In this document: positions 6,033 through 48,477 of the stretch, piece after piece
Layout: each line of letters starts with the position of its first letter
Numbering within the stretch: the first letter of the stretch is position 1
Sequence record: OZ335964.1
DNA length: 64,000 nt
DNA from: a phage
Strand: one strand, 5' to 3'
Position numbers and translations under genes: made by a program
Notes under the pieces: generated by a model
What the model saw: the letters and a program-made list of their open reading frames with translations, nothing else
What the model was told of the DNA's origin: nothing
Databases searched by the model: none

Positions 6033-6054
6033 CCGCCATTATACACACTTTATC

Positions 6055-7239: not shown

Positions 7240-7259
7240 TATTTCACCCCCATCAACGA

Positions 7260-7817
7260 TTAATGTATAATTGCATATTCGCCATGATATTGTACTATAT
7301 GCCTATTATACGCGTCAATAGCTTCTTCTTCCGAATCAAAGTATCCTATATGATGCGTCTCGTGGTTTACTGTTATTCGAACACGCCATTTATCATAACC
7401 TCTCACCTTTGAGATTCCTTTGTATTTTGAAGTCCTTCCCTCAATAGAAATTGATCCATTGCTATTAATCTGATTTTCGTTATGAGAAGCCGCCCTTAAA
7501 TTTTCAATTCTATTATTGGTTCGAACTCTATCAACATGATCTATTTGAGTTTTTCCATTAATAGGTCTTTCCTTGCTAGGACAATGACCATGAAACATAT
7601 GGTATATCACACGATGAATTTTTCTAGCTTTGCCATCTATCCAAACTTTGCAATATCCTTGCTTGTCAGGAAACCTCCCGATCACCTGACCTTTTTGTGC
7701 TTGACTGCTGGTAGATATCTTTCTAATCAATATTCCATCGTCATATTGAAATAATCTGTGATAGAGTTCATAAAGTCTCTTATCTTCGTCATTGTAATGA
7801 ATAACTTGATACATCAC
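7260..7817 (-). CDS. HNH-AP2 homing endonuclease inserted within gene 43
   Basis: HNH motif QIDHVDRVRTNNRIENLRAASHNENQ followed by AP2-like DNA-binding module YKGISKVRGYDKWRVRITVNHETHHIGYFDSEEEAIDAYN; start overlaps stop of 43 N-fragment. Confidence 0.8.
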   Translation of the reverse strand: MMYQVIHYNDEDKRLYELYHRLFQYDDGILIRKISTSSQAQKGQVIGRFPDKQGYCKVWIDGKARKIHRVIYHMFHGHCPSKERPINGKTQIDHVDRVRTNNRIENLRAASHNENQINSNGSISIEGRTSKYKGISKVRGYDKWRVRITVNHETHHIGYFDSEEEAIDAYNRHIVQYHGEYAIIH

Positions 7818-9331
7818 AACTCACCTCGCTTCTTCAATATTTCTTTTATTCGTTCAGCATTACGGTCACACGCCAACATCATGTTTTTGTACTGCTTACG
7901 CTGATCGAATACTTTCTTGATCTCAATCGGTATAATTCCATGAATATCTTTACGATACATCCAACCGTTAGGAGAACACGAGTATTCATCGCTAGGTCGT
8001 GGTGCTGTCTTATTAACATAATCATCAATTGGCGCGGCTTCAAACGATCCAGCGATTGTTTCCGGCGAAATGTTAACCTGTCGAATAATAGATGGGTACA
8101 GACTTGTTAAGTCAAAGCTCATCATCCAACGGTAAGCATTAGGTACTGGCTCTTTTACGAATGCGCCCGGATAAGTCTGCTTAGGCTGTATCTTATTTTC
8201 CGGTACTACTTTACCCTCAGCTTTCAGAGATCCGAAGATAATAGCATCCCATACTTTCATCGGGTTATAAACATGGTTAAATTTAATCTTTGCATAGAAA
8301 CATAGACTATACACAAGATCGATAAATCCACGCTTTTTATCAATCGCCAGCACACGATCAACGTCGCCGATGTTATAATCGATGTAAAGTTGATGGTTAT
8401 CATCACGCAATTTCTTTAACGGACCATCATAATCAACCTTACCGATTCCTGTCTCATATTCAGCAACATAATCTAATGCATATGTTGGTTGAGTCGTAAA
8501 GCTAAATTTCTTGTATAAGTCAATGTAGTCAAGGCTTTCGATCCCCATGATCGTAAATGCTTCACGCTCGTTGCCAAAATCATCCTGTGAGATTCGGGAT
8601 TTAATCTTACCGCACGGGCTTAGACGGTTAGCGGTTCTACTTCCGAACTTATTACTGATACGTTTAATGATATATGGAATATCGAATGTTTCTGTGTTCC
8701 AGCCAGTGAAACCAACGGGTCGGTTTTCCTCAAAGAATCGGATGTATTCTAACAGCAATTCATCTTCTGTATCATAGACGTTATAAACAACGCGCTCTAC
8801 AATATCAGGTCGAAGAATAGACTTTCTTGCTTCCCAGATTTCACCGTTTTTTCCTTTCAAATCAAACACAAAGAAACGATCATGTACGGAATCATAATGC
8901 GTAATTGCATCGATAGGATATTTCGCTTCTTCTGGTTTAGGAAATTCCGGTGCAGTGACCTCGATATCAACCCATGCTACACGGATTTTATTTCGGTCAT
9001 ATCGAATCTCGCCTTTATATGTATCGGACAGATAGGAGATGATAAAATCATCCATCCCTAGCGCCTCTTGCCCCATTTCCCCCATCTTTTTACGCCATTT
9101 GTTGGCCTCGTTCATAGATGGGAATTTTTTAGCAATGCAAGGCTTGCCATAGATATCTTTATAATTTGTAACCATACCAGGCGCGGCATGATGAAATAAA
9201 GTTGGCGTATATTCAACGTAACGCTCTTGTTCTTGTCCAGCATCATCAATATAACGCTCGTAGATCTTATCACCTACTCGCTCACATGACAGAAAATACA
9301 TAATATAAACTCCTTCACTTACGAAAGACAC
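7814..9331 (-). CDS. 43: DNA polymerase gp43, N-terminal fragment (3'-5' exonuclease/N-terminal domains; '43A')
   Basis: 505 aa; collinear with N-terminal ~500 aa of recalled T4 gp43 (ERYIDD...REVEY.P..F, FTGWN.E.FDIPYI, LDYIDLYKKFSFT.QP.Y.LDY, MSFDLTSLYPSIIRQVNISPETIAG). Confidence 0.9.
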   Translation of the reverse strand: MSFVSEGVYIMYFLSCERVGDKIYERYIDDAGQEQERYVEYTPTLFHHAAPGMVTNYKDIYGKPCIAKKFPSMNEANKWRKKMGEMGQEALGMDDFIISYLSDTYKGEIRYDRNKIRVAWVDIEVTAPEFPKPEEAKYPIDAITHYDSVHDRFFVFDLKGKNGEIWEARKSILRPDIVERVVYNVYDTEDELLLEYIRFFEENRPVGFTGWNTETFDIPYIIKRISNKFGSRTANRLSPCGKIKSRISQDDFGNEREAFTIMGIESLDYIDLYKKFSFTTQPTYALDYVAEYETGIGKVDYDGPLKKLRDDNHQLYIDYNIGDVDRVLAIDKKRGFIDLVYSLCFYAKIKFNHVYNPMKVWDAIIFGSLKAEGKVVPENKIQPKQTYPGAFVKEPVPNAYRWMMSFDLTSLYPSIIRQVNISPETIAGSFEAAPIDDYVNKTAPRPSDEYSCSPNGWMYRKDIHGIIPIEIKKVFDQRKQYKNMMLACDRNAERIKEILKKRGEL

Positions 9332-9383
9332 TCATTATAGGGGAATCGACTTAGTTTGTCAATACCCCTATCCCATCAGTATC

Positions 9384-9746
9384 TTATCGCCCGATCTGAT
9401 ATTTCTCGATCAGCGTCCACTCTTCTTTCTGTTTAAAAGACAGTACACGGAAATTATTAACTTCTGTAGTTTCAAAATCACTATCAATCAGGGTGCATAG
9501 ATTCCACTGCGCAAGAAGTTTTGCAATATTATTACGGCGCAATTCATCTTCCCACGTCATCTTAACACTACGACCATCTAATTTCAACAACTCCTTGAAA
9601 TGAACGATGTAATAGCGCCCCTTCTTCTGGAGAATATGACAAGACTGATACAGTGTCTTGTCTCGATTGTTGGCAATGCCGCAGCGGGTTAAAGTCTCCT
9701 TAATTTTAAGGAAGTTTTCAGGATTAATCAAATTAATTTCAATCAT
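9384..9746 (-). CDS. regA: translational repressor RegA
   Basis: 120 aa; MIEINLINPENFLKIKETLTRCGIANNRDKTLYQSCHILQKKGRYYIVHFKE... nearly collinear with recalled T4 RegA. Confidence 0.9.
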   Translation of the reverse strand: MIEINLINPENFLKIKETLTRCGIANNRDKTLYQSCHILQKKGRYYIVHFKELLKLDGRSVKMTWEDELRRNNIAKLLAQWNLCTLIDSDFETTEVNNFRVLSFKQKEEWTLIEKYQIGR

Positions 9747-9747
9747 T

Positions 9748-10326
9748 TTACCACCTTTCTATAATCTTTTTAAGTCGTTTCCTTTCTGTCTGATTCTTAG
9801 TAACACCCGCCAAAAGTTCATCGGTCGCATACGGTTTAATGTGCTTCAATAACTTGTCCATATATCCCTTTTCATTAGCCAAATCGAGATAAAATCGGGC
9901 GTCATCCATATTTACACAATATGCTTTCGCCACTGCCATTAAAACCAATTTTTGGTCTAATTCTTCTGTTAGTTTAGCCCATTTACCGTATCGTTTCCCC
10001 TTAGAAATACTCTGTAAGAGATAATCAAAATGCATTTGATCTGGGAGGCCATGACCGATTAAATTCATCACATACGCGCTATATAGGCAATCTGCGTGCT
10101 GGGAAAGAGCGGTATTAATCCATCTCTGATTGTATGCAGAATTATTCCCAACATTAACGCGCTGTTTATCTAAGGTGATATGATCCATCAGAGCAAATAA
10201 TGCATTGTCGGTTTTCTCGGTGAATGTGTCCGCTAGTTCAGACACTTTTTCCCAATCACGAGAGCGCCATGCAATTTCATGCTCGTTTAATTGTGTATCA
10301 TCTTCACCGAAAAATTGACCTAACAT
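9748..10326 (-). CDS. 62: clamp loader small subunit gp62
   Basis: 192 aa; ...QLNEHEIAW.S.DW..., ...YVMNLIGHGL..., ...KGKRYGKWAKL... match recalled T4 gp62; between regA and 44. Confidence 0.85.
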   Translation of the reverse strand: MLGQFFGEDDTQLNEHEIAWRSRDWEKVSELADTFTEKTDNALFALMDHITLDKQRVNVGNNSAYNQRWINTALSQHADCLYSAYVMNLIGHGLPDQMHFDYLLQSISKGKRYGKWAKLTEELDQKLVLMAVAKAYCVNMDDARFYLDLANEKGYMDKLLKHIKPYATDELLAGVTKNQTERKRLKKIIERW

Positions 10327-11300
10327 TATACGAACTCCAATTCAACCATTAATTGCATTAACAAAAAGACAATGTGAATCTCTTTATCAGCCGCGTGCGC
10401 AAACATCTGATTATTTTCACCGATAATCTCGGTCAGTCGGATAATCGACGCTGGCTTAACTTGAGTATACAACTCATTATAAAGTTTCTTGACAAATTGA
10501 GCGTATGTGTTGGTATATCGCGGTGCTAGTTTACGCACATTAGCAAACTGTTTAGTTTTAAGTGCTTCCACCACATCGGTTACTTCGGTATTGCTACTTT
10601 CGATAACCATGCTCAATACGCCAGCATCAATTTTACCATGTTTAGCGTAGCGGTCCAAAAGTTTCATTACGCGCCGGAAGTCTGGGAAGTTCTGCTTAAC
10701 CAGTTCCGCCAATACGCGCATTTCTTCTACTGGCACACCTTCTTTATCAAGAATTGCTTTACACCGGACGATCATTTCTTTCATCATGCGAAGCTGATCA
10801 TCTTTGGTCGGAGATCCAAACGTGATTGGGTCAAATCGAGATCGCAACGCTGGGATAATACCTTCTAGATCATTTGCTGTAATGATGAATGTCACATTGT
10901 TTGAGTATGCCTCAGAGAAACTACGCAAGTGTCTTTGAGCATCAGCCAGCCCCGCTCGGTCATACTCATCGATAATAACAACTTTGCCTTTTTCTCGTTT
11001 TTCTTCATCGAGTGATACACTCTGCGCAAAGCGTGTAATCTCATCGCGGATAAAATCAATCTTACAATCTGCGCCGTTAACAAACAGATAATCAACACCC
11101 ACATCTTCGCAAAGCGCCTTAGCAACGGTTGTTTTACCAGTACCCGGCGATGGGCTATGCAGAATCATTGAAGGGATTCGGCCTTGCTTAACAATCTGCG
11201 CGAAGATCTTTTTATCTGCTTCCGGCAGAATACATTCAGAAATTGATTTCGGACGGTATTTCTGTTCCCACTGAAACTCATTTTCATTAACACTCAGCAT
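10326..11300 (-). CDS. 44: clamp loader large subunit gp44 (AAA+)
   Basis: Walker A HSPSPGTGKTTVAKALC; near-collinear with recalled T4 gp44; start taken at internal Met (MLSVNENE...), ORF track extends to 11315. Confidence 0.9.
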   Translation of the reverse strand: MLSVNENEFQWEQKYRPKSISECILPEADKKIFAQIVKQGRIPSMILHSPSPGTGKTTVAKALCEDVGVDYLFVNGADCKIDFIRDEITRFAQSVSLDEEKREKGKVVIIDEYDRAGLADAQRHLRSFSEAYSNNVTFIITANDLEGIIPALRSRFDPITFGSPTKDDQLRMMKEMIVRCKAILDKEGVPVEEMRVLAELVKQNFPDFRRVMKLLDRYAKHGKIDAGVLSMVIESSNTEVTDVVEALKTKQFANVRKLAPRYTNTYAQFVKKLYNELYTQVKPASIIRLTEIIGENNQMFAHAADKEIHIVFLLMQLMVELEFV

Positions 11301-11365
11301 ATAATCACCTCTCACAAATTACATCATTAAAACGGGGAGTATTTACACTCCCCACAAACATTATA

Positions 11366-12055
11366 TTAGTCGGTGTAGCTGGAGTCAAGGTCACACGCGA
11401 TCATATAAGATACGGTTTCACTTGCCAGCCATACAGCCTTACGGCGAGTGAAGCTCAGTTTGTAATCGCCGAAGTCAGTAGCAACCAGTTTCATGTTATC
11501 TTTACGAATAAAGAAATGGAAGTCTGCGGTTCCGGCATATTCGCCCATATCAAGACAAAACATCTCATTAGGATTATTTTTGTCAATCTCTTCCCAACCT
11601 TTGATCATCAGACGACCATCAATCGGTAGAAACTCAAGTCGATCCACTTTAAGCTGATTGCTCATTTTCATAAGCTGTTTCAGATCGTCGTTGCTCAGTT
11701 CGTAATCTACATCGCTTGCAGGTGGAGTAACTCTGCCTTTCGGTGATACGATAGCGGCAGCACTAGCACCAGGATAATTAATTTTCAGACGATCGTTAGA
11801 CACACGAATGTTACCAGTGCGGTTATCAACCGTAATATCTGCTTCATCACCTACCAGATTCAGAATACCCAGGAAAGAGTTAAGATCATAGATCCCGATT
11901 TCGTGTTCCAGTTCTTGATTCAGAGTCGCTTCACCATATACAACGTTTGTCATGTTTTTGGTGATCAGGACGTTTCCTTTTTTCAGGATGATACCTGGGT
12001 TAATAGCGGAAAAGTTTTTCAGGGTAGCAATGGTTTCTTTAGTCAGTTTCATCAA
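11366..12055 (-). CDS. 45: sliding clamp gp45
   Basis: 229 aa; ...LKNFSAINPGIILK..., ...IYDLNSFLGILNLV... match recalled T4 gp45. Confidence 0.9.
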   Translation of the reverse strand: MMKLTKETIATLKNFSAINPGIILKKGNVLITKNMTNVVYGEATLNQELEHEIGIYDLNSFLGILNLVGDEADITVDNRTGNIRVSNDRLKINYPGASAAAIVSPKGRVTPPASDVDYELSNDDLKQLMKMSNQLKVDRLEFLPIDGRLMIKGWEEIDKNNPNEMFCLDMGEYAGTADFHFFIRKDNMKLVATDFGDYKLSFTRRKAVWLASETVSYMIACDLDSSYTD

Positions 12056-18375: not shown

Positions 18376-19845
18376 CTATTCCCCATTACCATTATACTTT
18401 CTTTGCTTAGTTATCCACACTCTAACCATTTCTACTGATTCGCCGTCAGACGGATCAAGAGTTTTTCCTTTTTTCTTCATGCGGTACTTAAATCCGTTAA
18501 ATCTTGCATTCTCTTGCTCGTTAAAGTCGAACATCTTTTTAAATGATTTTCGCCCTTTACGCTCACCACATTCTAGCGGAATCATTCGGTCTGTTATTAC
18601 ATTGGCATTAGGTAGAAACGTTTTTAGATAATCCACCAACGCCCAATCAGGAACATATAGATTAACATTCTCCTTGCTCTCGTTGTCTCTCAGGTTACAA
18701 CGCAAACATAATTGAAATGCTGGTTCCAGATAATCAGACACATGACGCGCTTTCAAAAACTCGTTTGTCGGGAGATCACAACTATTAGCAAGACCTTTTA
18801 AAATATCAATCTCCCATCGTTGAGGGTTAAAGCTGAACATCACAGCAACATTTTTATGATGAATGTAAGAGTTAAGACCATAAGATCCGTAAGGTATCCG
18901 CTCACCAATACCATTTGTGCACGCTTCTCGGTCCCGATTCACGGTATAAATGAAGTCATCACCACATTCATTTTTAACCATATCAACAAGACGTTCAAAG
19001 GTATTGTTTGTTTCTGACTGGTGACGCGACCATCGTTCAGAGTCCGTCATAAGGATGATGTTAACTCTATCTGTATTTTTATACTCTTTGAAATATAGTC
19101 TGGATTCTAGCGCACTCGGAACAAAATCGCAATTTGCATAGTATCGTAGATACTTCCCACTATATGTATCAAAGAGATTTGCACATGCTATCGTAACCTT
19201 TTTAAAGTCTCCCCACGTACCGTGTTTGTTATCGTTCAAGAAAACAATTTTCGACCCATTCTTCCGGTGTCCTTCGTTATGTTTTACCATAACGTTGATT
19301 TTCTTCTCTAATAACGCCTCATAAAGCCCTCTAAGCGAAGAATCGATCATATCAGTACCATCCTTCGCACTTTCTATCTTTTCTTTGATAGCGGACTTCT
19401 CAGAGTCTTTTAGAACTAAGTTCTGTAGGCATTCCGATTCGTCGGCGATTGGTTCGCAATGCTTCGTGATAAGTTCAAGATTAGACTTAAACGGATACTC
19501 ATTAAATTCAACCAGTTGAGGAACTTCATCAATGTAAAGAGCATAATCACCAAACATTTTTGAACGTTCCATATTAGATAACGCTGTATGTGTAATGAAT
19601 ATCACATCAGCACCGTCTTTAACTGATTGCATTATCGACGCTTGCACTGTCTTAAGGCTTCTTAGTCGTGTGCTATCAATCAAGACAGCACGACCGCCCA
19701 TTCTTTTAAACTTATTGTAAGATTGTTCACTTAAAACACGAGATGGCGAAGCAATAACCGCTTTTTCTTTTGTCTCTAGGACGTGGGAAAGTATAGCATC
19801 AGTTTTCCCCGCCGCTGGCAATGCGATTAATGTTTCAATCTTCAT
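18376..19845 (-). CDS. P-loop NTPase, helicase-like (489 aa)
   Basis: N-terminal Walker A LPAAGKTDAIL and Walker B-like YIDEVPQ; no close T4 counterpart recalled. Confidence 0.45.
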   Translation of the reverse strand: MKIETLIALPAAGKTDAILSHVLETKEKAVIASPSRVLSEQSYNKFKRMGGRAVLIDSTRLRSLKTVQASIMQSVKDGADVIFITHTALSNMERSKMFGDYALYIDEVPQLVEFNEYPFKSNLELITKHCEPIADESECLQNLVLKDSEKSAIKEKIESAKDGTDMIDSSLRGLYEALLEKKINVMVKHNEGHRKNGSKIVFLNDNKHGTWGDFKKVTIACANLFDTYSGKYLRYYANCDFVPSALESRLYFKEYKNTDRVNIILMTDSERWSRHQSETNNTFERLVDMVKNECGDDFIYTVNRDREACTNGIGERIPYGSYGLNSYIHHKNVAVMFSFNPQRWEIDILKGLANSCDLPTNEFLKARHVSDYLEPAFQLCLRCNLRDNESKENVNLYVPDWALVDYLKTFLPNANVITDRMIPLECGERKGRKSFKKMFDFNEQENARFNGFKYRMKKKGKTLDPSDGESVEMVRVWITKQRKYNGNGE

Positions 19846-20301: not shown

Positions 20302-20571
20302 TCAATAATCATAAATCGCCCTCAGTTCTTTATAGCCTCCAATGTGCTCGTTGTCAATGAATATCTGGGGGTATACAAACCGGAGGCTCTTTGAGTTCAG
20401 CCTCCCCGCCAGTTCTTCAATCATATCACGGTCGGGAATAATGTCAACCCCGACCTGCTTGAATACTGGTTTAAGTGTATACGGAATACCCAGATCATCC
20501 AGTAGCTTCATTGCACTAATACAACCATAACAATGATAAGCCTCTTTCGGTATACCGTATATCTCGATCAT
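20302..20571 (-). CDS. nrdH: glutaredoxin-like protein NrdH
   Basis: 89 aa thioredoxin fold with CYGC active site and YPQIFIDNEHIGG; adjacent to nrd genes. Confidence 0.7.
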   Translation of the reverse strand: MIEIYGIPKEAYHCYGCISAMKLLDDLGIPYTLKPVFKQVGVDIIPDRDMIEELAGRLNSKSLRFVYPQIFIDNEHIGGYKELRAIYDY

Positions 20572-21068
20572 TTCTCAGCCTTTAATCTTTCTAGTTCTTC
20601 TTCCAGTTCCTTGATCCGTTGGTCACGTTCAAAGTCACGCTGTAACTTAGTGGCGAATACTCGTTTAAACTGATTGTAATCATCGATTTTAAACACTTCT
20701 TCTTCGCCATAGCGACGCACAGAAACTTCGTAGTTATTGAAGAATTGTTGCATCATTGCTTCGGATGATAGCTCTGCTGATACCACTTTAAAATATTGAT
20801 CTTCTGTAGGCGAAAACCAATTACAAGCATAAAGATAAACCTTTTCATTGTCTGGACACTGGTAAGCCTTACCATCGATTTCAATCACAGAAACATATTC
20901 AGGTATACTAGATGAATCAATAGCTAAGACTTTAAACGCACGGTCCCCGATAAACTCGGAGATCACACGATTCGCATCACTGGTTGCAAATGCTTTACGC
21001 GCTTGTTCGTTTTTCCACTGATAGGTCATACCAACAACAAACATATTACCATCCTCGCTCTTTACCAA
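20568..21068 (-). CDS. paralog family A protein (166 aa)
   Basis: N-terminal domain VVGMTYQWKNEQA...IEIDGKAY...NWF related to WEVGKTYxWKD domain of three upstream neighbours; coiled-coil C-terminus. Confidence 0.5.
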   Translation of the reverse strand: MVKSEDGNMFVVGMTYQWKNEQARKAFATSDANRVISEFIGDRAFKVLAIDSSSIPEYVSVIEIDGKAYQCPDNEKVYLYACNWFSPTEDQYFKVVSAELSSEAMMQQFFNNYEVSVRRYGEEEVFKIDDYNQFKRVFATKLQRDFERDQRIKELEEELERLKAEK

Positions 21069-21870
21069 TCAAAAATTCAACTTCACGACGTTTAATGTCT
21101 TCTTGAAGGTCTTTAATCTTCTGGCGATCTTGCATGATTTCATCCATCTTGTCAAGTGCCGCAATGAAATCATCGAAACGTTCAAAGGTTTTACCTTCAT
21201 TTGCTTCGCCAAATTTAACCATTGTCAGTCCGTAACGACTACTAAACAGACGTTTCAACTGTCCAACGATCTTAGAATCAGTGGTTATAACTTCCAATTC
21301 TTCTACTTCACGAAAGAATTTTCTATCAGAATCAATAAACCAGCTAGTTCCTTTATGGTCTCTATCTTCGGTTGCGCTCATTAGAGTATGGTCTTTACCA
21401 TCAATTTCAATTACATCAATTTGCCCACATGGACTAACATTTTTAACAGTAAAAGGTCTATAATTTATTGCTCGTGCAATAACATAATTAAGGTTAGATA
21501 CGTTTTCAGCATAATGGCAGAAGTCGGTCATAGCATTCGCATCTTTCCAAGTATAAGTTTTACCAACTTCCCATTTCTGGGGAACTTCTTCAACTTCACG
21601 AAAGAATTTTCGATCGAATGGACTAAAGAAATATGTTGCAGTCCAAATGTCTTTTCCTGTAGCAGTTTTCGCCGTATGATAAACACCGTCTAGCTCTATT
21701 GCATTAATCCAACCGTTACCCTCGATCTCGATGATGGTAAATGGCTTGTCACCAATAGCTGCACTAATATCGCTGTTAAGTGGAGAAAGAACACCTTCTC
21801 CGTTAGTAATAAACTCAGTTTTAGCGTTTTCATCTTTCCAAGTGTAAGTTTTACCAATTTCCCATTTCAT
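21046..21870 (-). CDS. paralog family A protein with internal domain duplication (274 aa)
   Basis: Two copies of MKWEIGKTYTWKDENA.../...KWEVGKTYTWKDANA... each ending ...DRKFFREVEE. Confidence 0.55.
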   Translation of the reverse strand: MKWEIGKTYTWKDENAKTEFITNGEGVLSPLNSDISAAIGDKPFTIIEIEGNGWINAIELDGVYHTAKTATGKDIWTATYFFSPFDRKFFREVEEVPQKWEVGKTYTWKDANAMTDFCHYAENVSNLNYVIARAINYRPFTVKNVSPCGQIDVIEIDGKDHTLMSATEDRDHKGTSWFIDSDRKFFREVEELEVITTDSKIVGQLKRLFSSRYGLTMVKFGEANEGKTFERFDDFIAALDKMDEIMQDRQKIKDLQEDIKRREVEFLIGKERGW

Positions 21871-21882
21871 AATATATTCCCC

Positions 21883-22362
21883 TTAACCGATTTTATCAAG
21901 TTCGTTTAATGCTTTCTCTGCTTCCTGTATAGCTTGCACCCTTTCCGGCATTTTGTCAAGAAAATCTTTCAACTCTTCAAAACTGGAGATATGACGCAAG
22001 GCGTTAGCACCGATAGCCGCATGTGATTTGCATTCAAAGCGAATTTTATAATTATCCATCGCCAACTTGAGAAGATCAATTAGTTTAGATTCTTCTGGAA
22101 TACTAATTTCTTCAAATCTGCTACGGTCGTGATCCAGAAACCAACAAGATAGACCTACATCGGTTGAACTCATATAAGTTCCATCATGAAGATATACAGA
22201 TCGCACGTATCCTTTTTTCGCATCAACCGACGCAACTTTAAACGGTAATCGCAGATATTTCAAATAATCAACATCATACCATTTAAAAAATTGGTTTGCA
22301 TCTTTTACATCTTTCCACGCATAGGTCTTACCAACTTCCCATTTCATAATATCATCTCTCAT
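21883..22362 (-). CDS. paralog family A protein (159 aa)
   Basis: MKWEVGKTYAWKDVKDA... domain plus conserved C-terminal L..L..M..Y.I...MP.R module. Confidence 0.5.
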   Translation of the reverse strand: MRDDIMKWEVGKTYAWKDVKDANQFFKWYDVDYLKYLRLPFKVASVDAKKGYVRSVYLHDGTYMSSTDVGLSCWFLDHDRSRFEEISIPEESKLIDLLKLAMDNYKIRFECKSHAAIGANALRHISSFEELKDFLDKMPERVQAIQEAEKALNELDKIG

Positions 22363-22885
22363 TTTTGATACGTGATTCTAATTGGATCATACGGTCTCGC
22401 GTTTGCTTGTATTCACGGATATTGCCGATCCGGCTAGGCATACCATCAAGCACGCTCTTAATCCCTTCTAGGGTAGTGATTTTAGCAATGCTATTATGTA
22501 ACCCCATCTTATCGATCAACTGAATGTCGTAGGCTTCCATAAGCAGACCCAGACGTTCTAAAGTTAGGTCTTCTTTTTCTTCCGATTCTGGAATCTTAGG
22601 TTCAATAGTAACTTCGGTAAAGAAACGACGCTCACCAGCCCAAAACCACACACCGGAAAAGCCAATAGGGGATTCTTTTAACGTCATAGAGTCGTAACCA
22701 CTGCCGATAATAGTAATTTCTCTAACATCACCATCATCGTCAATGTCTTCTACCCTAAACGGGCGACCAGCCAACAAGTCCACAATACGTCTGTTAATAG
22801 ACGACGAAAATTTAGTCAGTTCGGCTTTCGACGCTTCGCATTCAATCTTGTAAGTTTTACCAACTTCCCATTCCATAATAATCAC
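22352..22885 (-). CDS. paralog family A protein (177 aa)
   Basis: MEWEVGKTYKIECEA... domain; C-terminal module as in 21883..22362. Confidence 0.5.
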   Translation of the reverse strand: MIIMEWEVGKTYKIECEASKAELTKFSSSINRRIVDLLAGRPFRVEDIDDDGDVREITIIGSGYDSMTLKESPIGFSGVWFWAGERRFFTEVTIEPKIPESEEKEDLTLERLGLLMEAYDIQLIDKMGLHNSIAKITTLEGIKSVLDGMPSRIGNIREYKQTRDRMIQLESRIKNER

Positions 22886-24695: not shown

Positions 24696-24753
24696 GTTGT
24701 CCTCTCGTTGTTTTCGATGTGAGCATTATACATTAGCTAATCATGTTGTCAAC
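24696..24753 (-). promoter_or_regulatory. sigma70-type early promoter with conserved leader
   Basis: Minus strand TTGACA-16 nt-TATAAT, then GAGAGGACAAC-ATG. Confidence 0.6.
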
Positions 24754-24757
24754 ACCC

Positions 24758-24790
24758 CAAAACGAAAAAGCCGACCCTTTCGGATCGGCT
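24758..24790 (-). terminator. rho-independent terminator after nrdD
   Basis: Minus strand AGCCGAUCC-GAAA-GGGUCGGCU followed by UUUUUCGUUUU. Confidence 0.65.
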
Positions 24791-24795
24791 AAAAA

Positions 24796-26658
24796 TTACA
24801 TGTGCTTAACGCGGTTTACCATCTCGGAGTGTTTCCCGTGGTTAAATGGACGCAGATCAACAGATCCAAGATATCCACTAACGCGCCGGATAACATTCAT
24901 CTTTTCCAGATTGTCATTGCCGCAATCAGGACAAACAAAACCAGACTCGGTCGCTCTCATTTCCTTAGTAGATCCGCATACATGACATACATCAGAAGGA
25001 GTATTAACACCGAAGTAATGCAATTTATCCATTGCATAGTCTACTACAGTTTCAAGACCTTTCAGGTTGTTTTTCATGTCTGGGAACTCAACATAAGAGA
25101 TCATGCCACCGGACGCCAGCCAGTGATAATCTTTCTCAAAGTCGATTTTCTCAAACGGTGTGACTTTCCGGTCTACGTCAAGATGGAATGAGTTGGTGTA
25201 CCAGTCTTTATCGGTAGCACCCTTAACAATACCAAATTGCTCTCGATCCAGTCGATTAAATCGATAGCAAAGGCTCTCGGCTGGCGTACCGTAAAGACTA
25301 AACCCAAGTCCGGTTTCGTCCTTCCATTTTTCAGTATAATGACGCAAGATCTTAAGAATATGTTTACCGTATCGCTGCGCATCTTCCGAATCAAACGGAT
25401 GAACACCAAACAGGACGCTCAATACCTCATGTAAACCAATATATCCAAGAGAGATACTAGCGCGACCATCTTTCAACACTTCCAAAATTTCATCGTTTTG
25501 ATGAATACGGAAAAATGCACCTTCTGTATACAGCACAGGAGCAACATTGGCTTTAGCCCCTTTTAAAGCGTCTACGCGACTCATCAGCGCATCAAAGCAA
25601 ATAGGCATACGATTAGCTAGCTCTTGTTCGAATAGCTCAATTCTGCGCATTACAGACGCTTTACCAGCACGACGCGCGGCAATAAGAGCAATACGCGGAA
25701 GATTCAGAGTCACAACACCTAAGTTATTACGTCCGTCTAATACTTCTTCGCCTTTCTCATTATGCCACACACCCAGGAAGCTACGACAACCCATCGGGCT
25801 AACCGGAACACTAGATCCAGTGATACTACGGTTATTCTTCGCAGAGATATAATCAGGGTAAAGACGCTTACTAGAACATTCCAATGCAAGTTGCTTAATG
25901 TCGTAGTTCGGATCTTCCGGTTTAAGGTTTAATCCTTCTTCTAAGAACATCACCAGCTTAGGAAACACCGGAGTGATACCATCTTTACCTAAACCTTTAG
26001 TTCGAACGTTCAGGATCGCTTTCTGAATCAGTTTTTCTTCCCAGCTAGTACCCATACCAAAGGTTAAAGTCACAAAAGGCGTTTGACCGTTGGTAGAGAA
26101 CAAAGTGTTGATCTCATATTCCAACGCCTGATATCCGTCTAACGTTTCTTTTTCTGTCTTCTCTTGTGCATAGAGAGTATCAGCTTTGATTCCGTAGGTT
26201 TCGGCATCAGCAAGGTGTTTATGATATGTTTTCTCAACATACGGTGCTAACACCTGATCGATGTTTGCAATTGTGGTCCCGCCATATTGATGACTTGCCA
26301 CCTGTGCGATAATTTGAGCGGTTACAGCACAAGCAACGCCGATTGATTTCGGACTTTCGATTTGTGCACTACCCAATTTAAAACCATTCTCTAACATGTC
26401 TTTGAGATTAACAAGACAGCAGTTAGTAAACGGCATAGCGGGTGCATAATCCATATCATGATAATGAATATCACCGTCTACATGCGCTTTATAGATGTGC
26501 TCAGGTAACACGGTTTTAGCAATCTGTTTAGACACAGCACCAGCAATCAGATCTCGACGTGTCGGGAATGTTCGCGCGTCTTTGTTCGCGTTCTCTTTGC
26601 TTACTTCGTTTTCTTTACCCGTTGCGATCTCTGTAATGTCTTTGATTAGTTTTTCCAT
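24796..26658 (-). CDS. nrdD: anaerobic ribonucleoside-triphosphate reductase NrdD
   Basis: 620 aa; C-terminal Zn ribbon CHVCGS...CPDCG and glycyl-radical motif RVSGYLG; appears uninterrupted. Confidence 0.92.
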   Translation of the reverse strand: MEKLIKDITEIATGKENEVSKENANKDARTFPTRRDLIAGAVSKQIAKTVLPEHIYKAHVDGDIHYHDMDYAPAMPFTNCCLVNLKDMLENGFKLGSAQIESPKSIGVACAVTAQIIAQVASHQYGGTTIANIDQVLAPYVEKTYHKHLADAETYGIKADTLYAQEKTEKETLDGYQALEYEINTLFSTNGQTPFVTLTFGMGTSWEEKLIQKAILNVRTKGLGKDGITPVFPKLVMFLEEGLNLKPEDPNYDIKQLALECSSKRLYPDYISAKNNRSITGSSVPVSPMGCRSFLGVWHNEKGEEVLDGRNNLGVVTLNLPRIALIAARRAGKASVMRRIELFEQELANRMPICFDALMSRVDALKGAKANVAPVLYTEGAFFRIHQNDEILEVLKDGRASISLGYIGLHEVLSVLFGVHPFDSEDAQRYGKHILKILRHYTEKWKDETGLGFSLYGTPAESLCYRFNRLDREQFGIVKGATDKDWYTNSFHLDVDRKVTPFEKIDFEKDYHWLASGGMISYVEFPDMKNNLKGLETVVDYAMDKLHYFGVNTPSDVCHVCGSTKEMRATESGFVCPDCGNDNLEKMNVIRRVSGYLGSVDLRPFNHGKHSEMVNRVKHM

Positions 26659-26702
26659 TGTATCACCTATGAAAAAGCGGGATTTCTCCCGCTCGTTGAT
26701 AG

Positions 26703-27197
26703 TTATTTTACCAGTTCTGCTAATTCTTTTTCCGCCGCTTCCAGTTCAGCTTTCAGTTGTTTGATCTCTTGTCGCTTCTTATTAGCGGCTTCCTGCTTAC
26801 TATTTCGGATAACCTGATCTAGATACAACTCCCAATCCTGAATATTTTTGATAATGTAGCCGTCAACGTTCAGAGCTTTAATATTAAGAACTTCTTCCAG
26901 CTTACTTAAAGAACGTTGTGTTTCTGGGAAGAAATAGTCATATTCACCTCGGTCAAACCAGTAGCTTATGCCAGCTTTATCTAAACGACGATGCAATTCA
27001 TAAAAATCTCTACCATCTTCGACGATGAGTTTGTCTACATCGCCATTACAGTTAACAGAGACTTTGAATCTAATATTATCAACCCCACCAAAAACATCAA
27101 TAAGGATAGTTCCGATCGTGTTATCCGCGCTTCCAGTATCCATAAAAGATTCTAGTTTTTCTTGATTAGTAACGTACCAAACATCTTGTTTCCACAT
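26703..27197 (-). CDS. paralog family B-related protein (164 aa)
   Basis: Beta-rich N-domain plus C-terminal coiled coil (KKRQEIKQLKAELEAAEKELAEL); leader GAGAGGATTATATTATG shared with neighbours. Confidence 0.45.
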   Translation of the reverse strand: MWKQDVWYVTNQEKLESFMDTGSADNTIGTILIDVFGGVDNIRFKVSVNCNGDVDKLIVEDGRDFYELHRRLDKAGISYWFDRGEYDYFFPETQRSLSKLEEVLNIKALNVDGYIIKNIQDWELYLDQVIRNSKQEAANKKRQEIKQLKAELEAAEKELAELVK

Positions 27198-27258
27198 AAT
27201 ATAATCCTCTCGTTGTTAAGTGGGAGTATTATAGCATACTCCCTTCGCATGTCAAGCA
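27198..27258 (-). promoter_or_regulatory. early promoter-hairpin-leader cassette (PeSL-like)
   Basis: TTGACA - 16 nt - TATAAT, with TATAAT inside loop of GGGAGUA/UACUCCC hairpin; stop codon of upstream gene lies inside the -35. Confidence 0.6.
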
Positions 27259-28430
27259 CTAACTTTTTTCTTTACTGCTTTCACCTTCTGGCGAATTGCT
27301 CGAATCTCTTCGATCTCTTTTTCAGTCTCTTTAACAATTTCTTTGCGATTCTGAATATCTGTATCGAGATTATCATCAAGTTTAGGCAGCATGTCAATCA
27401 AGAACTTTTTAAAGTCTTTCAGGTTTCTGATAACAGCACCTTCACCCATTACCGCCACCCCTACACCATCCGGCAGATCGCCAAACAGTTTAACCAGTTC
27501 AGACAGATGATCATGATCTTCTAGTGCTTCTTCCGGTTCAGATGGCAGTTCAACAAAGTTATAACGTTCATCATTGCTGATGATGTGATACCAGCAAAGC
27601 CCGAATGATTTCGGTGTATATTCTACACCATCAATTTCAACCGAGTCAACACTTCCATAATCATCTACTTTAGTTACCTTAAATCCTTGTCCCAGCTTTT
27701 GAACAATTTCAACAACATGACTTGATACAGTTTCAGCGGTAAACCAATATGGCAAATTATGCTGATTTGGCTTGTAGCGTTCACCTACTTTAAATCTCTG
27801 ACCAGCCGCTTGCATAGCATGAAATTGTTGTTTCGTGATTTCCGCGAAGTATTCAAATTCGCTACCATCAAACAAGCAATTCCATTGATCACAAAAACGA
27901 TCCGCCTTGACGGTTTCACCTTTCGCGGTGATCACGGTAGCTGATCCGTGCAATTCTTCTTCAACTAAAAAGCCATATTCGACAAAATCGACAAGTTTCA
28001 TGGCTTCTTTGTGCTCTGGATCATTCTCTCCCCAGAATCGCTTAAATTCTTGCAAACCTTCCGGGGTAAACGAATAACATTTACCTTTTTCAAAGTAAGT
28101 CGGCATTGCATCCTCTTTCTTGTTCATAGCTTCGTATGCCTCTTTTGAGATACGTTTAAAGTATTTGCGCTCATTGTGCATAATCATAGTAGCCCAATAA
28201 TAAACGATATCCTCAGCGGAATAAACTACATCTCCAGCTTCAATAGTAATAACATGACCGTGGTCATCTTTTTCTAATACTTTAAAGCCCTTTTCTACGA
28301 TTTCAGCAACCCGAATATGACCACGGCGCGAAGCATCGGTCAGAATAATTGAATAGCGAGAAAAGTCTAGAAACTCATCTTTACCGCCTTCACGGAATGC
28401 ATAGTAATGACCTTCAAAGAATTTAGCCAT
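27252..28430 (-). CDS. paralog family B protein with three tandem domains (392 aa)
   Basis: Three repeats of ~100-aa module (e.g. ...GFKVLEKDDHGHVITIEAGDVVY...HNERKYFKRISKEAYEAM); C-terminal coiled coil. Confidence 0.5.
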   Translation of the reverse strand: MAKFFEGHYYAFREGGKDEFLDFSRYSIILTDASRRGHIRVAEIVEKGFKVLEKDDHGHVITIEAGDVVYSAEDIVYYWATMIMHNERKYFKRISKEAYEAMNKKEDAMPTYFEKGKCYSFTPEGLQEFKRFWGENDPEHKEAMKLVDFVEYGFLVEEELHGSATVITAKGETVKADRFCDQWNCLFDGSEFEYFAEITKQQFHAMQAAGQRFKVGERYKPNQHNLPYWFTAETVSSHVVEIVQKLGQGFKVTKVDDYGSVDSVEIDGVEYTPKSFGLCWYHIISNDERYNFVELPSEPEEALEDHDHLSELVKLFGDLPDGVGVAVMGEGAVIRNLKDFKKFLIDMLPKLDDNLDTDIQNRKEIVKETEKEIEEIRAIRQKVKAVKKKVSA

Positions 28431-28492
28431 AATATAATCCTCTCGTTGTTTAGACGGGAGTATCTTACTACTCCCGTTTCATCATGTCAAGC
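28431..28492 (-). promoter_or_regulatory. early promoter-hairpin-leader cassette (PeSL-like)
   Basis: TTGACA - hairpin GGGAGUAguaagaUACUCCC - conserved leader GAGAGGATTATATT-ATG. Confidence 0.55.
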
Positions 28493-29052
28493 GTTAAATG
28501 ACTTTTGGATCTCTTTCAGTTCAGCTACTTTATCGGCGCTGAATTTAGCGTAGGTATCATGTCGAATAATTTCACTTTCAAGAAAGGTTTCCAGCCGAGA
28601 TCTATTTTCAATAAGGAACTCTTTCAGGTCTTCCGCGTTCTTGATAAAGATTTTATTGTCGGTAATGTCATCTTCAATCGCAAAGGAGATAGAGCGAACT
28701 TTACCAAACAAGTTAATCAGATCTTCCAGAGATTCTTCTTTCTTAACTGGTTTCATTTCTTCAAACTGCTTTTTAGTGATGCGTTTAAAGTATTTGCGCT
28801 CGTTTGCAGCAATCAGAACAGATGCACCTTCATACTCATGAGTTTCTACCAGATACACACGACCCATCGCATCAACAGTGAGAACTTTAAAGCCGTTACA
28901 AAGCACGTCATACAAGAACTTATTATGTTGCGGACATCGTTTGATAAATTCCTCTGCGGACTCAGCATTACGGAAAGTGTAATAACGACCTCGTTCAAAA
29001 ACAGCATCAGTTGAAGACTTAGCCGGATACAATTTATACGTTTTCTGTACCA
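28487..29052 (-). CDS. paralog family B protein (~188 aa; start at MVQKTY)
   Basis: ...NGFKVLTVDAMGRVYLVE...ANERKYFKRITKKQFEEM matches modules in 27252..28430; SD GAGGATTATATT precedes ATG near 29052. Confidence 0.5.
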
Positions 29053-29067
29053 TAATATAATCCTCTA

Positions 29068-29340
29068 TCATTTCACTAATTGAACAGCACGAAACAGAAT
29101 GCGGTCACACGGAAGAAGCATAAATTCCCAACGCGGATCAAAGTCTTTAGCGGTATATGTTTTCCCATCAACCGAGATTTCACTTACATAACCAATAGGT
29201 GACACTTTAAGAATAGTAAATCCATTCTTGATGACTTCGTAGGTATCTTTCAATCCTTCGTAGTCATCCTCTAGGAAGTCTTTACGTGCTTGCTCAGATT
29301 TAAAAACATAGGCCACACCGGATTTAAACATCTTACGCAT
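29068..29340 (-). CDS. paralog family B single-domain protein (90 aa)
   Basis: ...NGFTILKVSPIGYVSEISVDGKTYTA... is a short version of the family B module. Confidence 0.45.
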   Translation of the reverse strand: MRKMFKSGVAYVFKSEQARKDFLEDDYEGLKDTYEVIKNGFTILKVSPIGYVSEISVDGKTYTAKDFDPRWEFMLLPCDRILFRAVQLVK

Positions 29341-29402
29341 TGTTGATTCTCCTTCTTGATTAGATGGGAGTATTTTACTACTCCCATTTCATGCTGTCAA
29401 CT
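29341..29402 (-). promoter_or_regulatory. early promoter-hairpin-leader cassette (PeSL-like)
   Basis: TTGACA - 17 nt containing GGGAGUA/UACUCCC hairpin - TAAAAT - AAGGAGAATCAACA-ATG. Confidence 0.6.
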
Positions 29403-29403
29403 A

Positions 29404-29877
29404 CTATCTTAATCTTTGTATAAATTGTTTCTTATACTTCTTCGTGATCTCTTCTCTTGTATCCGCGTCACAATAATCGAAACCTTCTGCGTCCATAATA
29501 GCAACCATCTCCGCGCGTGTCAAGCGTGAAAATCGTTTTACTTTATCAACAGCATATTGAGGATGTAAATGATTGTTGGTGTAGTCTCCTTTGATGTAAT
29601 TAACATAGTTTGTAGCCCAAACAACGAAATCAGCACCTAAAGCACCAACACCAAACCGTTTAAAGTCTCCGGTCAACGATCCTTCTAGGCGGTTGCAACA
29701 CGAATGAAGCAATCCCCTTACGCGGCCTTGCCCTTTCCCATCTAGATCGTGGTCGTGGTCAAGATGGTTTTTGCTCATATCCTCAAAAAGTGGCAATTGA
29801 CAAAGGGGGCAAATGCCCCCCTGTTTTTCGAATAGTTCTTGTTTGTACTCTTTAGCACTCTTAGCAGTCAGTAACAT
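29404..29877 (-). CDS. 49: endonuclease VII (Holliday junction resolvase) gp49
   Basis: MLLTAKS...GGICPLCQ...NHLDHDHDLDG...VRGLLHSCCN parallels recalled T4 endo VII (MLLTGK...GKCLICQ...NHLDHDHELNG...VRGLLCNLCN); start taken at internal Met. Confidence 0.85.
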   Translation of the reverse strand: MLLTAKSAKEYKQELFEKQGGICPLCQLPLFEDMSKNHLDHDHDLDGKGQGRVRGLLHSCCNRLEGSLTGDFKRFGVGALGADFVVWATNYVNYIKGDYTNNHLHPQYAVDKVKRFSRLTRAEMVAIMDAEGFDYCDADTREEITKKYKKQFIQRLR

Positions 29878-48138: not shown

Positions 48139-48477
48139 TCACACCTTTAAAGTCATAGACGCATAAACATTAACACCAGGCCAGTTAGGATCGCAATTAT
48201 ACTCAACATCCCACAAATAAAGCGGTTTAGATGTATCAGCCAAGTTTTTAAAATCTTCTACCCACATTTCAATGCTATATGATGGATAAACTAGGCTGTC
48301 ATATCCTCCGTAACGTTGGCCTACTGGTCGGTCAGTAAAAACTACCTCAAGATCCGGTAATTCTTTTTCAAGGATAACCGCCAGCGCATAAATCAGACGG
48401 TCTTCCTTGTTACGCTGCCGAAGGACCGTTGTCAGTTGGCTTTTCTGGTTCACTAGCAAGCACCTCCACATTTTCAC
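48139..48477 (-). CDS. hypothetical protein (112 aa)
   Basis: Co-oriented ORF. Confidence 0.4.
   Translation of the reverse strand: MKMWRCLLVNQKSQLTTVLRQRNKEDRLIYALAVILEKELPDLEVVFTDRPVGQRYGGYDSLVYPSYSIEMWVEDFKNLADTSKPLYLWDVEYNCDPNWPGVNVYASMTLKV

Follow-up and report, generated by a model that had tools for sequence, protein, structure and literature searches.

What kind of proteins are encoded by a run of four small ORFs next to nrdD, and how did so many diverged copies of one domain come to stand in a single phage genome? Here, we analysed a window of 64,000 nucleotides (sequence record OZ335964.1), which belongs to a Krischvirus, i.e., an RB49-like coliphage of the T4 type. The four ORFs, B0 to B3 (cluster B), all lie on the minus strand, as do the other family members, the PeSLs, the leaders and the stem-loop described below, and their counterparts in the RB49 annotation are RB49p057-060. 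Cluster B probably consists of four paralogous genes, arrayed side by side and transcribed early, which belong to the GoF/Frd.2/MotB.1 family known from T4-like phages. Together with four genes across nrdG-nrdD (family A) and one gene beside gene 41, it makes up an expansion in Krischvirus to 9 genes with 12 modules, a count which is the same for the whole genome of RB49. A reading made from the sequence alone had counted about 8 genes and 11 domain copies flanking nrdG-nrdD; this is correct for that region, and the gene missed there is the ninth, with the 12th module, at 2255..2890. The match of one further ORF, 48410..48730, was weak and partial (E 1e-3 to 1e-2), and this ORF was left out of the count. 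The array ORFs can be regarded as real genes, since their dN/dS values are 0.11-0.41 (against 0.01-0.07 in the flanking core genes) and since they are conserved in 59 phage records, all nine being kept in nearly all of these Krischvirus records. Two of them already bear the label "goF" in RefSeq.

The most elaborate member of the cluster is B1 (27252..28430, 392 aa), which consists of three tandem modules of ~95 aa followed by a C-terminal domain. Module 1 covers aa 1-108 (28107..28430), module 2 aa 109-209 (27804..28106) and module 3 aa 210-302 (27525..27803), while the C-terminal domain (27252..27524) comprises a short helix and a 55-residue helix. The tandem arrangement had been proposed before and is borne out by three lines of evidence. 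An HMM trained without any B1 sequence and run against 425 ORF segments from the window recovered three domains in B1, with E-values of 2e-7, 1.9e-5 and 7e-11; phrog_622, an independent PHROG profile, matches B1 in three stretches; and in an AlphaFold2 model the unit beta1-alpha-alpha-beta2-beta3-beta4-alpha-beta5 occurs three times. The model is of moderate confidence (pLDDT 75.5, pTM 0.43) and its alignment contains paralogues. In databases B1 is represented by 8 clusters only, each at least 82% identical. The motifs quoted earlier for cluster B are present, and one of them, NERKYFKRI, is covered in B1 and B2 by a 53-nt DNA repeat.

The two genes upstream of B1 carry one module each, on which HMM and hhalign results agree. 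B2 (28487..29053, 188 aa, starting at 29053 and not at 29052) has its module at about aa 14-108, followed by a helical C-terminal domain. It was found by the leave-out HMM with an E-value of 1.4e-12, and its RB49 orthologue is annotated in RefSeq as "goF mRNA metabolism modulator". B3 (29068..29340, 90 aa) is a single GoF-like module without a C-terminal tail (leave-out E 2.7e-16), which matches phrog_16115 with cross-hits to phrog_5347 and phrog_622. The last gene, B0 (26703..27197, 164 aa), was previously described as a more distant member, and this description holds. Its divergent module (aa 1-96) is followed by a C-terminal helix, a hairpin and a 45-residue helix; the leave-out HMM found it at E 5e-4, and comparison with a family profile built without B0-class sequences gave an hhalign probability of 96.7% (E 3.5e-10; 3.5e-9 for the RB49 allele). 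A model of B0 made from an independent alignment runs beta1-alpha-alpha-beta2-beta3, with a helix in the expected beta4 position, and its weak Foldseek matches belong to the same phage family, a VR7 "GoF" being one of them.

Family A spans 20568..22876 and comprises A1 (20568..21044, 158 aa), A2 (21046..21870, 274 aa), A3 (21883..22347, 154 aa) and A4 (22352..22876, 174 aa, its start taken from the identical protein P0009). Each has one module and a tail except A2, which has two modules, 50% identical to each other, and a tail. The ninth member, X (2255..2890, 211 aa, one module and a tail), is an orthologue of RB49 "dc2" and sits just downstream of the gene 41 helicase gene. Although it was in no training set, it was found at E-values of about 1e-8 to 3e-9, and hhalign links it to the first A2 module at 94.9%.

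Are all these modules homologous, or do they merely resemble each other? An HMM built from family A only finds B1 (2.6e-14), B3 (1.5e-10) and B2 (8e-6), and an HMM built from family B only finds A2, A1, A4 and A3. A profile-profile comparison, named beforehand as the test in which common descent of the repeats could fail, was run and detected homology: in comparisons between thin profiles, B3 is linked to A1 at 96.8%, to A2 at about 90-93% and to the third B1 module at 96.7%. The cross-family HMMs and these links support the view that families A and B form one superfamily with one divergent fold. The identity between paralogous modules is only 13-34%, and some pairwise profile comparisons are insignificant, e.g., B1 module 2 against module 3 (9%) or B0 against every single group, as one would expect if non-homologous domains were similar by chance. 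However, such an origin has next to no probability in view of leave-out E-values that reach 1e-7 to 1e-16, the recovery of the untrained ninth member at E 1e-8, and the threefold pattern in B1, seen both with the independent PHROG profile and in predicted secondary structure.

The module is predicted to be a small SH3/LSm-like five-stranded beta-barrel, that is, a bent antiparallel beta-sheet at the N-terminus, with a two-helix insert after beta1. The B0 model departs from the barrel in that a helix replaces beta4. Only five columns of the module alignment are invariant or nearly so (Y, F, F, F and G), i.e., core hydrophobic residues and one glycine, and Foldseek returned nothing outside proteins of T4-like phages. 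In the models of B1 and B0 the modules are followed by a flexible linker of low pLDDT and a helical C-terminal domain, and the same layout is recognised by sequence in B2, A1-A4 and X. The sequence-only reading had all members of both families end in coiled-coil tails. This does not apply to B3, which has no tail; the other tails are modelled as long, charged helices, but their heptad signal is weak: a crude test gave marginal values for B0, A3 and A4 and no significance elsewhere. A common origin of all C-terminal domains was considered and rejected: leave-out HMMs were not significant across the set except for B1 with B2, and hhalign supports only the pairs B1-B2, A3-A4 and B0-X. The helical C-terminal domains of all cluster members but B3 probably mediate self-association.

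The family to which these modules belong is already known, which the earlier reading had missed. The array modules are very likely diverged members of the GoF/Frd.2/MotB.1 family. An HMM made from only the 12 window modules finds T4 GoF (1.5e-11), Frd.2 (2.2e-6) and MotB.1 (2.6e-4), with matches that span their whole N-terminal domains, and a wider family HMM finds them at 2.5e-18, 1.6e-11 and 9.3e-7, respectively. Moreover, phrog_622, which contains T4 GoF and Frd.2, matches not only the three stretches of B1 but also two of A2, as well as B2, B3, A1, A3 and A4; it does not match B0 and X, which are linked only through the profiles built in this analysis. Against Pfam PF03197 (FRD2), B1 reaches 17.5 bits, and its second module taken by itself 13.3 bits, below the gathering threshold of 29 bits (T4 Frd.2 scores 133 bits), and the matches of the proteins or modules to RecT, LYR, FRD2 and coiled-coil families are all below cut-off. 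A sequence search for a solved structure of the family found none.

Word-indexed homologue searches returned almost only Krischvirus orthologues, and the family became visible by exhaustive profile search, which yielded 87 representatives from 1.84 billion proteins, most of them small (76-392 aa). Giant proteins of 1,000-5,000 aa were also returned, but their matches cover no more than 20-40 profile positions, repeated many times; the three sampled ones (P0087, P0070 and P0133) are unrelated repetitive or cadherin/Ig-like proteins, and the whole class was treated as spurious. Among the Foldseek matches in BFVD every named organism is a phage, including T4-like JSE, Aeh1 and S16, while many rows are nameless. 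By the profile search and the named Foldseek matches, the family is restricted to T4-like phages. A three-module protein of 354 aa (P0076) has no match among isolate phages, and its metagenomic context was used instead; a multi-module gene array beside 49/nrdD was found in a metagenomic phage whose NrdD is only 59-67% identical. [quoted passage not shown] 2025, PMC12152347); that work mentions neither RB49-type phages nor tandem-module proteins.

How is the cluster expressed and delimited? RB49 and phi1 carry promoter-early stem-loop cassettes, PeSLs (Arbiol et al. 2010, PMC2839356; Comeau et al. 2014, PMC4122927), and three of the approximately 8 PeSLs of the 64-kb window fall within the 2.7 kb of cluster B. 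A near-consensus sigma-70 promoter, a stem-loop, a Shine-Dalgarno sequence and an ATG are found together at 29400, 28490 and 27255. The PeSL upstream of B3 (29341..29400) has TTGACA, a 17-nt spacer and TAAAAT; its 8-bp stem ATGGGAGT/ACTCCCAT surrounds the -10 box, and a ribosome-binding site and ATG stand at its end. The one upstream of B1 (28431..28490) has TTGACA, 17 nt and TAAGAT, the stem ACGGGAGT/ACTCCCGT and the leader GAGAGGATTATATT-ATG; the one upstream of B0 (27198..27255) has TTGACA, 16 nt and TATAAT, which is consensus at 12/12 positions, the stem GGGAGTAT/ATACTCCC and again the leader GAGAGGATTATATT-ATG. These promoters make early expression of the genes a reasonable candidate; promoter and terminator activities have been shown experimentally for other PeSLs (Arbiol et al. 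2010, PMC2839356). The array genes themselves are not discussed in the PeSL paper. At the other end, between B0 and nrdD, a stem-loop followed by a T-run (26672..26692, GCGGGA-GAAA-TCCCGC then TTTTT) is likely to be an intrinsic terminator closing the cluster; it was read directly from the sequence and is absent from the stem-loop scan list.

The sequence-only reading had proposed that three genes share an identical leader, that the genes are each separated by a PeSL, and that this points to cassette-mediated duplication. PeSLs do precede B3, B1 and B0; however, there is none between B3 and B2, where the B2 leader TAGAGGATTATATT (29054..29067) follows directly on the B3 stop codon with neither promoter nor stem-loop. 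The leader claim is literally true, in that B0, B1 and B2 all have the identical 16-mer AGAGGATTATATTATG upstream (the preceding base being G, G and T, respectively), but it is not specific to the cassettes. The 16-mer also stands exactly ahead of the unrelated gene 40 homologue, and it has 13 sites with at most 2 mismatches, against 0.05 expected by chance; by this distribution the AGAGGATTATATT-ATG leader is to be seen as a generic ribosome-binding site of this phage. Duplication by cassettes is not shown, because the paralogues are old, as follows from the 13-34% identity of their modules; in addition, the leader is generic, and no PeSL separates the genes of family A.

What related phages do show, as far as their junction sequences tell, is cassette-mediated loss and exchange, and the comparison of copy numbers suggested earlier revealed such cases along with gain or loss of a module. 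B2 is found in 57/59 Krischvirus records and is missing in KFS-EC and in the metagenome contig L006. KFS-EC lacks both B3 and B2, and a single chimeric PeSL remains at the junction, its 5' part matching the B3 PeSL and its 3' part the B1 PeSL. Contig L006 lacks B2 and its downstream PeSL; here the junction lies exactly at the repeated leader, so that the B2 leader runs directly into the B1 ATG. B0 is only 65% identical to its RB49 counterpart (dS 0.69) with neighbours at 97-99.7%, which indicates an allele replaced relative to RB49. Finally, A2 occurs in two forms, which are delimited by a 30-nt repeat, 93% identical, at the end of both modules: the second module is present in 54/59 records, and a one-module form of 184 aa occurs in contigs L004 and L005. 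It is likely that the array is reshaped in two ways. Whole genes would be lost, gained and replaced via homologous recombination at the repeated PeSL cassettes and the shared ribosome-binding leader, and modules would be gained or lost in frame through unequal recombination at short DNA repeats which encode conserved motifs at module ends.

As for function, the modules are more probably than not non-enzymatic binding domains, which would be shown singly or in threes on helical stalks and whose targets, early in infection, would be macromolecules of the host or the phage. Binding rather than catalysis is proposed because nothing but the hydrophobic core and one glycine is conserved. The nature of the ligand is a harder question. 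The fold was called LSm-like, with Hfq among its neighbours (Kim et al. 2025, PMC12152347), and the sole phenotype in the family points to RNA: GoF(D25Y) stabilises an mRNA, lengthening the half-life of the gene 41 leader RNA post-transcriptionally. In addition, the modules of B2 and B3 have a basic pI (8.5 and 7.8), and one member adjoins gene 41. The proteins could be LSm-like RNA-binding proteins, i.e., RNA chaperones or modulators of mRNA stability, made multivalent by three modules or tailed oligomers in the manner of an Hfq ring. We consider this unlikely. We tentatively favour, at somewhat less than even chances, a protein ligand in RNA/nucleic-acid metabolism or defence, because most modules are acidic (pI 4.2-5.9) and because wild-type GoF and MotB.1 have no effect on RNA, the effect appearing only with the D25Y mutant. 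A metal (iron)-binding or regulatory role as FeoA/IdeR-type SH3-like domains is extremely improbable: the module alignment has no invariant His, Cys, Asp or Glu, GoF has no metal-ligand histidines (Kim et al. 2025, PMC12152347), and sequence identity is negligible (11-13%).

The genes might also do nothing at all and persist only as passengers moved by PeSL cassettes and mini-circles. The region is indeed hyperplastic and rich in PeSLs, as the three within 2.7 kb attest, close relatives differ by gains and losses of genes, and the T4 homologues are dispensable in the laboratory. Nevertheless, dN/dS is clearly below 1, the nine genes are kept in nearly all records, a multi-module array stands at the same 49/nrdD position in a phage with a distant NrdD, and T4 GoF is present at about 20,000 copies per cell, which together make a lack of function very unlikely. 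A more ambitious version of the binding-domain proposal, which we regard as speculative and rather doubtful, is that the 12 modules are a diversified recognition repertoire against different host factors (degradosome, Rho, defence), with integron-like PeSLs and B1 as a multivalent scaffold. If so, PeSLs would swap alleles and copy number among co-infecting phages, and the array would be a counter-defence or host-takeover arsenal, giving the GoF family a function.

The array thus adds further members to a known family and reveals neither a new kind of system nor a function. What is new are two clean cases in which genes were lost at PeSLs or leaders, and one in which a module was gained or lost in frame; these cases support modular shuffling by PeSLs as modelled in the literature. 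The family is abundant in T4-like phages and present in high copy early in infection. RB49-type phages, with 12 diverged modules in 9 genes, offer a natural panel for binding-partner screens, suited also to mapping the conserved core against the variable surface, and combined deletions in them might reveal a phenotype masked by redundancy in T4.

Compared with known systems, the modules share with Hfq and Sm/LSm proteins the small bent five-stranded antiparallel beta-sheet, as described for the T4 homologues (Kim et al. 2025, PMC12152347). Unlike in them, beta1 is followed by an insert of two helices, in place of a single N-terminal helix, most modules are acidic, Sm1/Sm2 motifs are lacking, and no protein or module matches Pfam LSM or Hfq at E up to 1; for the T4 proteins, no confident multimers and no ring oligomer were predicted (Kim et al. 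2025, PMC12152347). They differ from FeoA and the C-terminal SH3-like domain of DtxR/IdeR in the absence of conserved metal ligands and in their setting, a putative early gene array of a phage. The PeSLs of cluster B resemble those of RB49 and phi1 in the near-consensus sigma-70 promoter, the G/C-rich stem-loop across the -10 box and the Shine-Dalgarno sequence with ATG at the 3' end, and one chimeric PeSL is left at deletion junctions as in the published ORF192 example; the L006 junction differs in that it falls within the leader only, its upstream side having neither promoter nor stem-loop. The closest relatives are the T4 GoF proteins, with which the array shares, by sequence profile, the N-terminal beta-barrel module of ~90 aa, FeoA and IdeR among the structural neighbours, a linker followed by a variable C-terminal domain (B3, with its module only, being the exception), and a place in dispensable regions of T4-like phages, to which both are confined; the T4 genes are early, and those of the array are predicted to be so. 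In contrast to the three genes described in T4, however, the Krischvirus genome holds 9 genes with 12 modules, some of its proteins join two or three modules in tandem, and where GoF and Frd.2 have short beta-alpha C-terminal domains, its proteins have long charged helical tails.

The four neighbouring minus-strand genes B3 (29068..29340, 90 aa), B2 (28487..29053, 188 aa), B1 (27252..28430, 392 aa) and B0 (26703..27197, 164 aa) lie in a region, 26600..29450, which is 92-98% identical to about 59 Krischvirus records (RB49-like T4-type coliphages). The gene order is that of RB49: gp49, four small genes, nrdD, three ORFs, nrdG, four small genes and nrdH. The ORFs at 26703..29340 named by the sequence-only reading are real genes, with the start of B2 at 29053 instead of 29052. 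Across nrdG-nrdD, "family A" comprises A4 (22352..22876), A3 (21883..22347), A2 (21046..21870, two modules) and A1 (20568..21044), all on the minus strand, with start codons corrected from identical database proteins and the RB49 annotation. A ninth member, X (2255..2890, minus strand, 211 aa; orthologue of RB49 "dc2"), is placed immediately downstream of the gene 41 helicase, the gene whose mRNA is concerned in the family's only known phenotype, that of T4 GoF(D25Y). Scanning the whole RB49 genome in six frames gave exactly these nine genes and 12 modules and none further. We also noted a 187-aa ORF (747..1310, minus strand) which by eye looks like an HNH/AP2-type homing endonuclease; since RB49 has its annotated HNH endonuclease (DNA-binding AP2 domain) elsewhere, between gene 47 and a-gt.4, this ORF may be a mobile element insertion.

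All proteins were split into modules of about 95 aa and aligned, and the common pattern was [FW]xxGxxY, a helical stretch ending in F, FKV, G.V..I, DG and ER.[FY]F. The window was divided into its 425 stop-to-stop segments, all of which were searched with leave-out HMMs. The HMM built without B1 separated three domains in it (2e-7, 1.9e-5 and 7e-11), in agreement with the three tandem modules proposed for this gene, and the modules assigned to B2 and B3 were recovered at 1.4e-12 and 2.7e-16 when these proteins were left out. A family A-only HMM matched B1 (2.6e-14), B3 (1.5e-10) and B2 (8e-6), a family B-only HMM matched A2 (6e-15) and also A1, A4 and A3, and X, outside the HMM training, was matched at E about 1e-8. 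Thin profile-profile comparisons relate B1 module 1 to module 2 (93%), module 3 (91%) and B2 (96%), B1 module 3 to B3 (96.7%), and B3 to A1 (96.8%) and A2 (90-93%); the module profiles link up into a connected network, through which B3 joins both "families". Clusters A and B are positional groups of one superfamily and not two clades, which upholds the main interpretation of the sequence-only reading, one divergent fold across both clusters. B0, described there as more distant, is so: its leave-out recovery was weak (4.9e-4), its orthologue group matched by hhalign (96.7% probability, E 3.5e-10, 88 columns) a family profile of 159 sequences with no B0-class sequence among them, and its RB49 allele scored 3.5e-9 against that profile. 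Elsewhere in the window, the module HMMs matched a 106-aa ORF (48410..48730, minus strand) weakly and over part of the profile (positions about 27-60, E 1e-3 to 1e-2); this ORF may be a remnant, or the match may be due to chance.

The AlphaFold2 model of B1 (mean pLDDT 75.5, module cores 80-92; alignment of 107 sequences, paralogues among them) repeats one unit three times, at residues 9-101, 118-208 and 218-295: beta1, two helices, beta2, beta3, beta4, a short helix and beta5. A short helix and a 55-residue helix follow. For independence of the test, B0 was modelled from B0-class sequences only (pLDDT 79.5). The model has beta1, two alpha helices, beta2 and beta3 as in the family, then diverges, with a helix (62-74) at the expected position of beta4 and a C-terminal domain in which a first helix and a hairpin precede a 45-residue helix; its Foldseek matches are weak and lie on the same phage proteins, one of them annotated GoF (phage VR7). 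Profiles and model together show B0 to be a divergent family member. All the proteins had been said to end in coiled-coil tails. This fails for B3, which has no tail; a charged helical C-terminal domain is present in the other eight of the nine proteins, and coiled coils are plausible there, the crude heptad test being marginal. Among these domains, only the pairs B1-B2, A3-A4 and B0-X have support for sequence homology.

A profile made from the window modules only matches the N-terminal domains of T4 GoF (1.5e-11), Frd.2 (2.2e-6) and MotB.1 (2.6e-4). Conversely, the phrog_622 profile, whose core is T4 GoF and Frd.2, has three matching stretches in B1 and two in A2, and also matches B2, B3, A1, A3 and A4; none of the family proteins reached the Pfam FRD2 threshold. 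Public annotation already flags the array in part, as the RB49 orthologues of B1 and B2 carry the RefSeq label "goF mRNA metabolism modulator" and B1 was named "frd.2" in the original RB49 annotation. [quoted passage not shown] 2025, PMC12152347). Its members begin with a five-stranded, LSm-like barrel of SH3 topology, which a linker connects to C-terminal domains that vary. T4 mutants in each of the three genes grow normally, and a cell contains about 20,000 copies of GoF. RB49-type phages, tandem modules and paralogue arrays are not mentioned by Kim et al. 2025 (PMC12152347), nor are RB49-type family members, tandem modules or paralogue arrays in the PeSL papers or the five-genome comparison. 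The array represents an expansion, specific to the lineage and including multi-module variants, of an already described protein family.

Whole-length B1 was found only in Krischvirus (8 clusters, each at least 82% identical). An exhaustive profile search of 1.84 billion proteins returned 87 family representatives, most of 120-280 aa with an N-terminal module; about a dozen have two modules, and three occur only in B1 and a 354-aa database protein. The latter comes from a 71-kb metagenomic phage contig (NrdD 59-67% identical to that of the window) with a run of five adjacent genes, each of two or three modules, that directly precedes a gene 49-like gene and nrdD, so multi-module GoF-like arrays beside 49/nrdD are not peculiar to Krischvirus. 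In this distant T4-like phage (contig L012, array region 5887..11566; SRR14300940) an I-HmuI-like endonuclease gene interrupts nrdD, and there are also promoters resembling those of PeSLs (the promoter-early stem-loop cassettes of RB49 and phi1), with a GAGGAATATATT-ATG leader.

We compared divergence between the window, RB49 and two metagenomic relatives. The flanking core genes gp55, nrdG, nrdD, gp49 and nrdC are 97-100% identical (dN/dS 0.01-0.07) and the family genes 62-98% (dN/dS 0.11-0.41), which points to purifying selection, relaxed several-fold; dS is much higher in some family genes than in these core genes. B0 is 65% identical to its RB49 allele (dS 0.69) between neighbours at 99.7% (nrdD) and 97.4% (B1), and this step in identity indicates that the allele was replaced. 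The replacement (26703..27197 against L001 9105..9599) is clean, with a PeSL at one edge and a terminator at the other. A 489-aa ORF beside gp55 (18376..19845, minus strand), whose relatives have a weak DEAD-helicase Pfam match, is 72% identical in contig L004 and 97.5-99.6% in RB49 and contig L006, and is another mosaic segment. The dam methyltransferase of L004 (7437..8238) is possibly disrupted, being called as separate ORFs of 49 aa and 177 aa and not as one of 270 aa.

As to function, the genes would be transcribed early from PeSL promoters, with the stem-loop and T-run at 26672..26692 presumably closing the B cluster. Conservation is confined to core hydrophobic residues and one glycine, for which reason the proteins would be non-enzymatic binding modules; the helical tails may mediate self-association, and we set beside this that GoF and MotB.1 migrate partly as dimers. 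We tentatively favour protein ligands over RNA. An acidic pI (4.2-5.9) is seen in ten of the 12 modules, SH3/Tudor-type interaction domains are the closest folds, and module surfaces evolve fast; the wild-type T4 members also lean this way, as a gene 41 leader RNA is stabilised by GoF(D25Y) but by neither GoF nor MotB.1 in their wild-type form. That the modules are RNA chaperones is a serious rival, albeit one we consider less likely: the family's only phenotype concerns mRNA stability, and the B2 and B3 modules are basic.

About 8 PeSLs are found in the window, 3 of them within the 2.7-kb B cluster. A terminator-promoter pair just downstream of nrdD, in which a strong stem-loop terminator (24725..24790, minus strand; 9 pairs and a T-run) is directly followed by a perfect TTGACA-16-TATAAT promoter, differs from them in layout. 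From an identical leader shared by three genes separated by PeSLs, cassette-mediated duplication had been suggested. We do not retain this suggestion. Paralogous modules share only 13-34% identity, so the duplications are old and, on this reading of the sequences, cannot be tied to cassettes. The AGAGGATTATATT-ATG leader also exactly precedes the gene 40 homologue, with 13 occurrences at up to 2 mismatches, and does not mark the GoF-like family; the 3' end of a PeSL includes the Shine-Dalgarno sequence and ATG (Arbiol et al. 2010, PMC2839356).

Modules themselves are gained and lost in frame. The two A2 modules are 50% identical to each other and both end in a 30-nt repeat (93% identical, 288 nt apart) encoding DRKFFREVEE; the second module occurs in 54 of 59 records, and contigs L004 and L005 carry A2 as a one-module form whose tail is unchanged. 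Other repeats were noted. B1 module 1 (28123..28175) and B2 (28752..28804) have in common, despite protein identity of about 34%, a 53-nt repeat in which about 20 bases are identical (GAGCGCAAATACTTTAAACG, coding for ERKYFKR, the core of the NERKYFKR motif); gene conversion may account for it, as may strong codon constraint. A 69-nt repeat (67-77% identical, KWEVGKTYTWKD motif) at the 5' end of four family A modules (21516..22881) is a potential substrate for unequal recombination.

Judging by the junctions, what the cassettes demonstrably mediate is gene loss, gain and exchange. B2 is present in 57 of 59 records. Contig L006 is devoid of B2 and of the PeSL after it; after the B3 stop codon come TAGAGGATTATATT and the B1 ATG, which places the crossover in the repeated leader. 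The related phage KFS-EC lacks both B3 and B2, and its junction is a single chimeric PeSL, the 5' part like the PeSL before B3 and the 3' part like that before B1. Such a single chimeric PeSL is the signature that recombination between PeSLs has been described to leave (Arbiol et al. 2010, PMC2839356).
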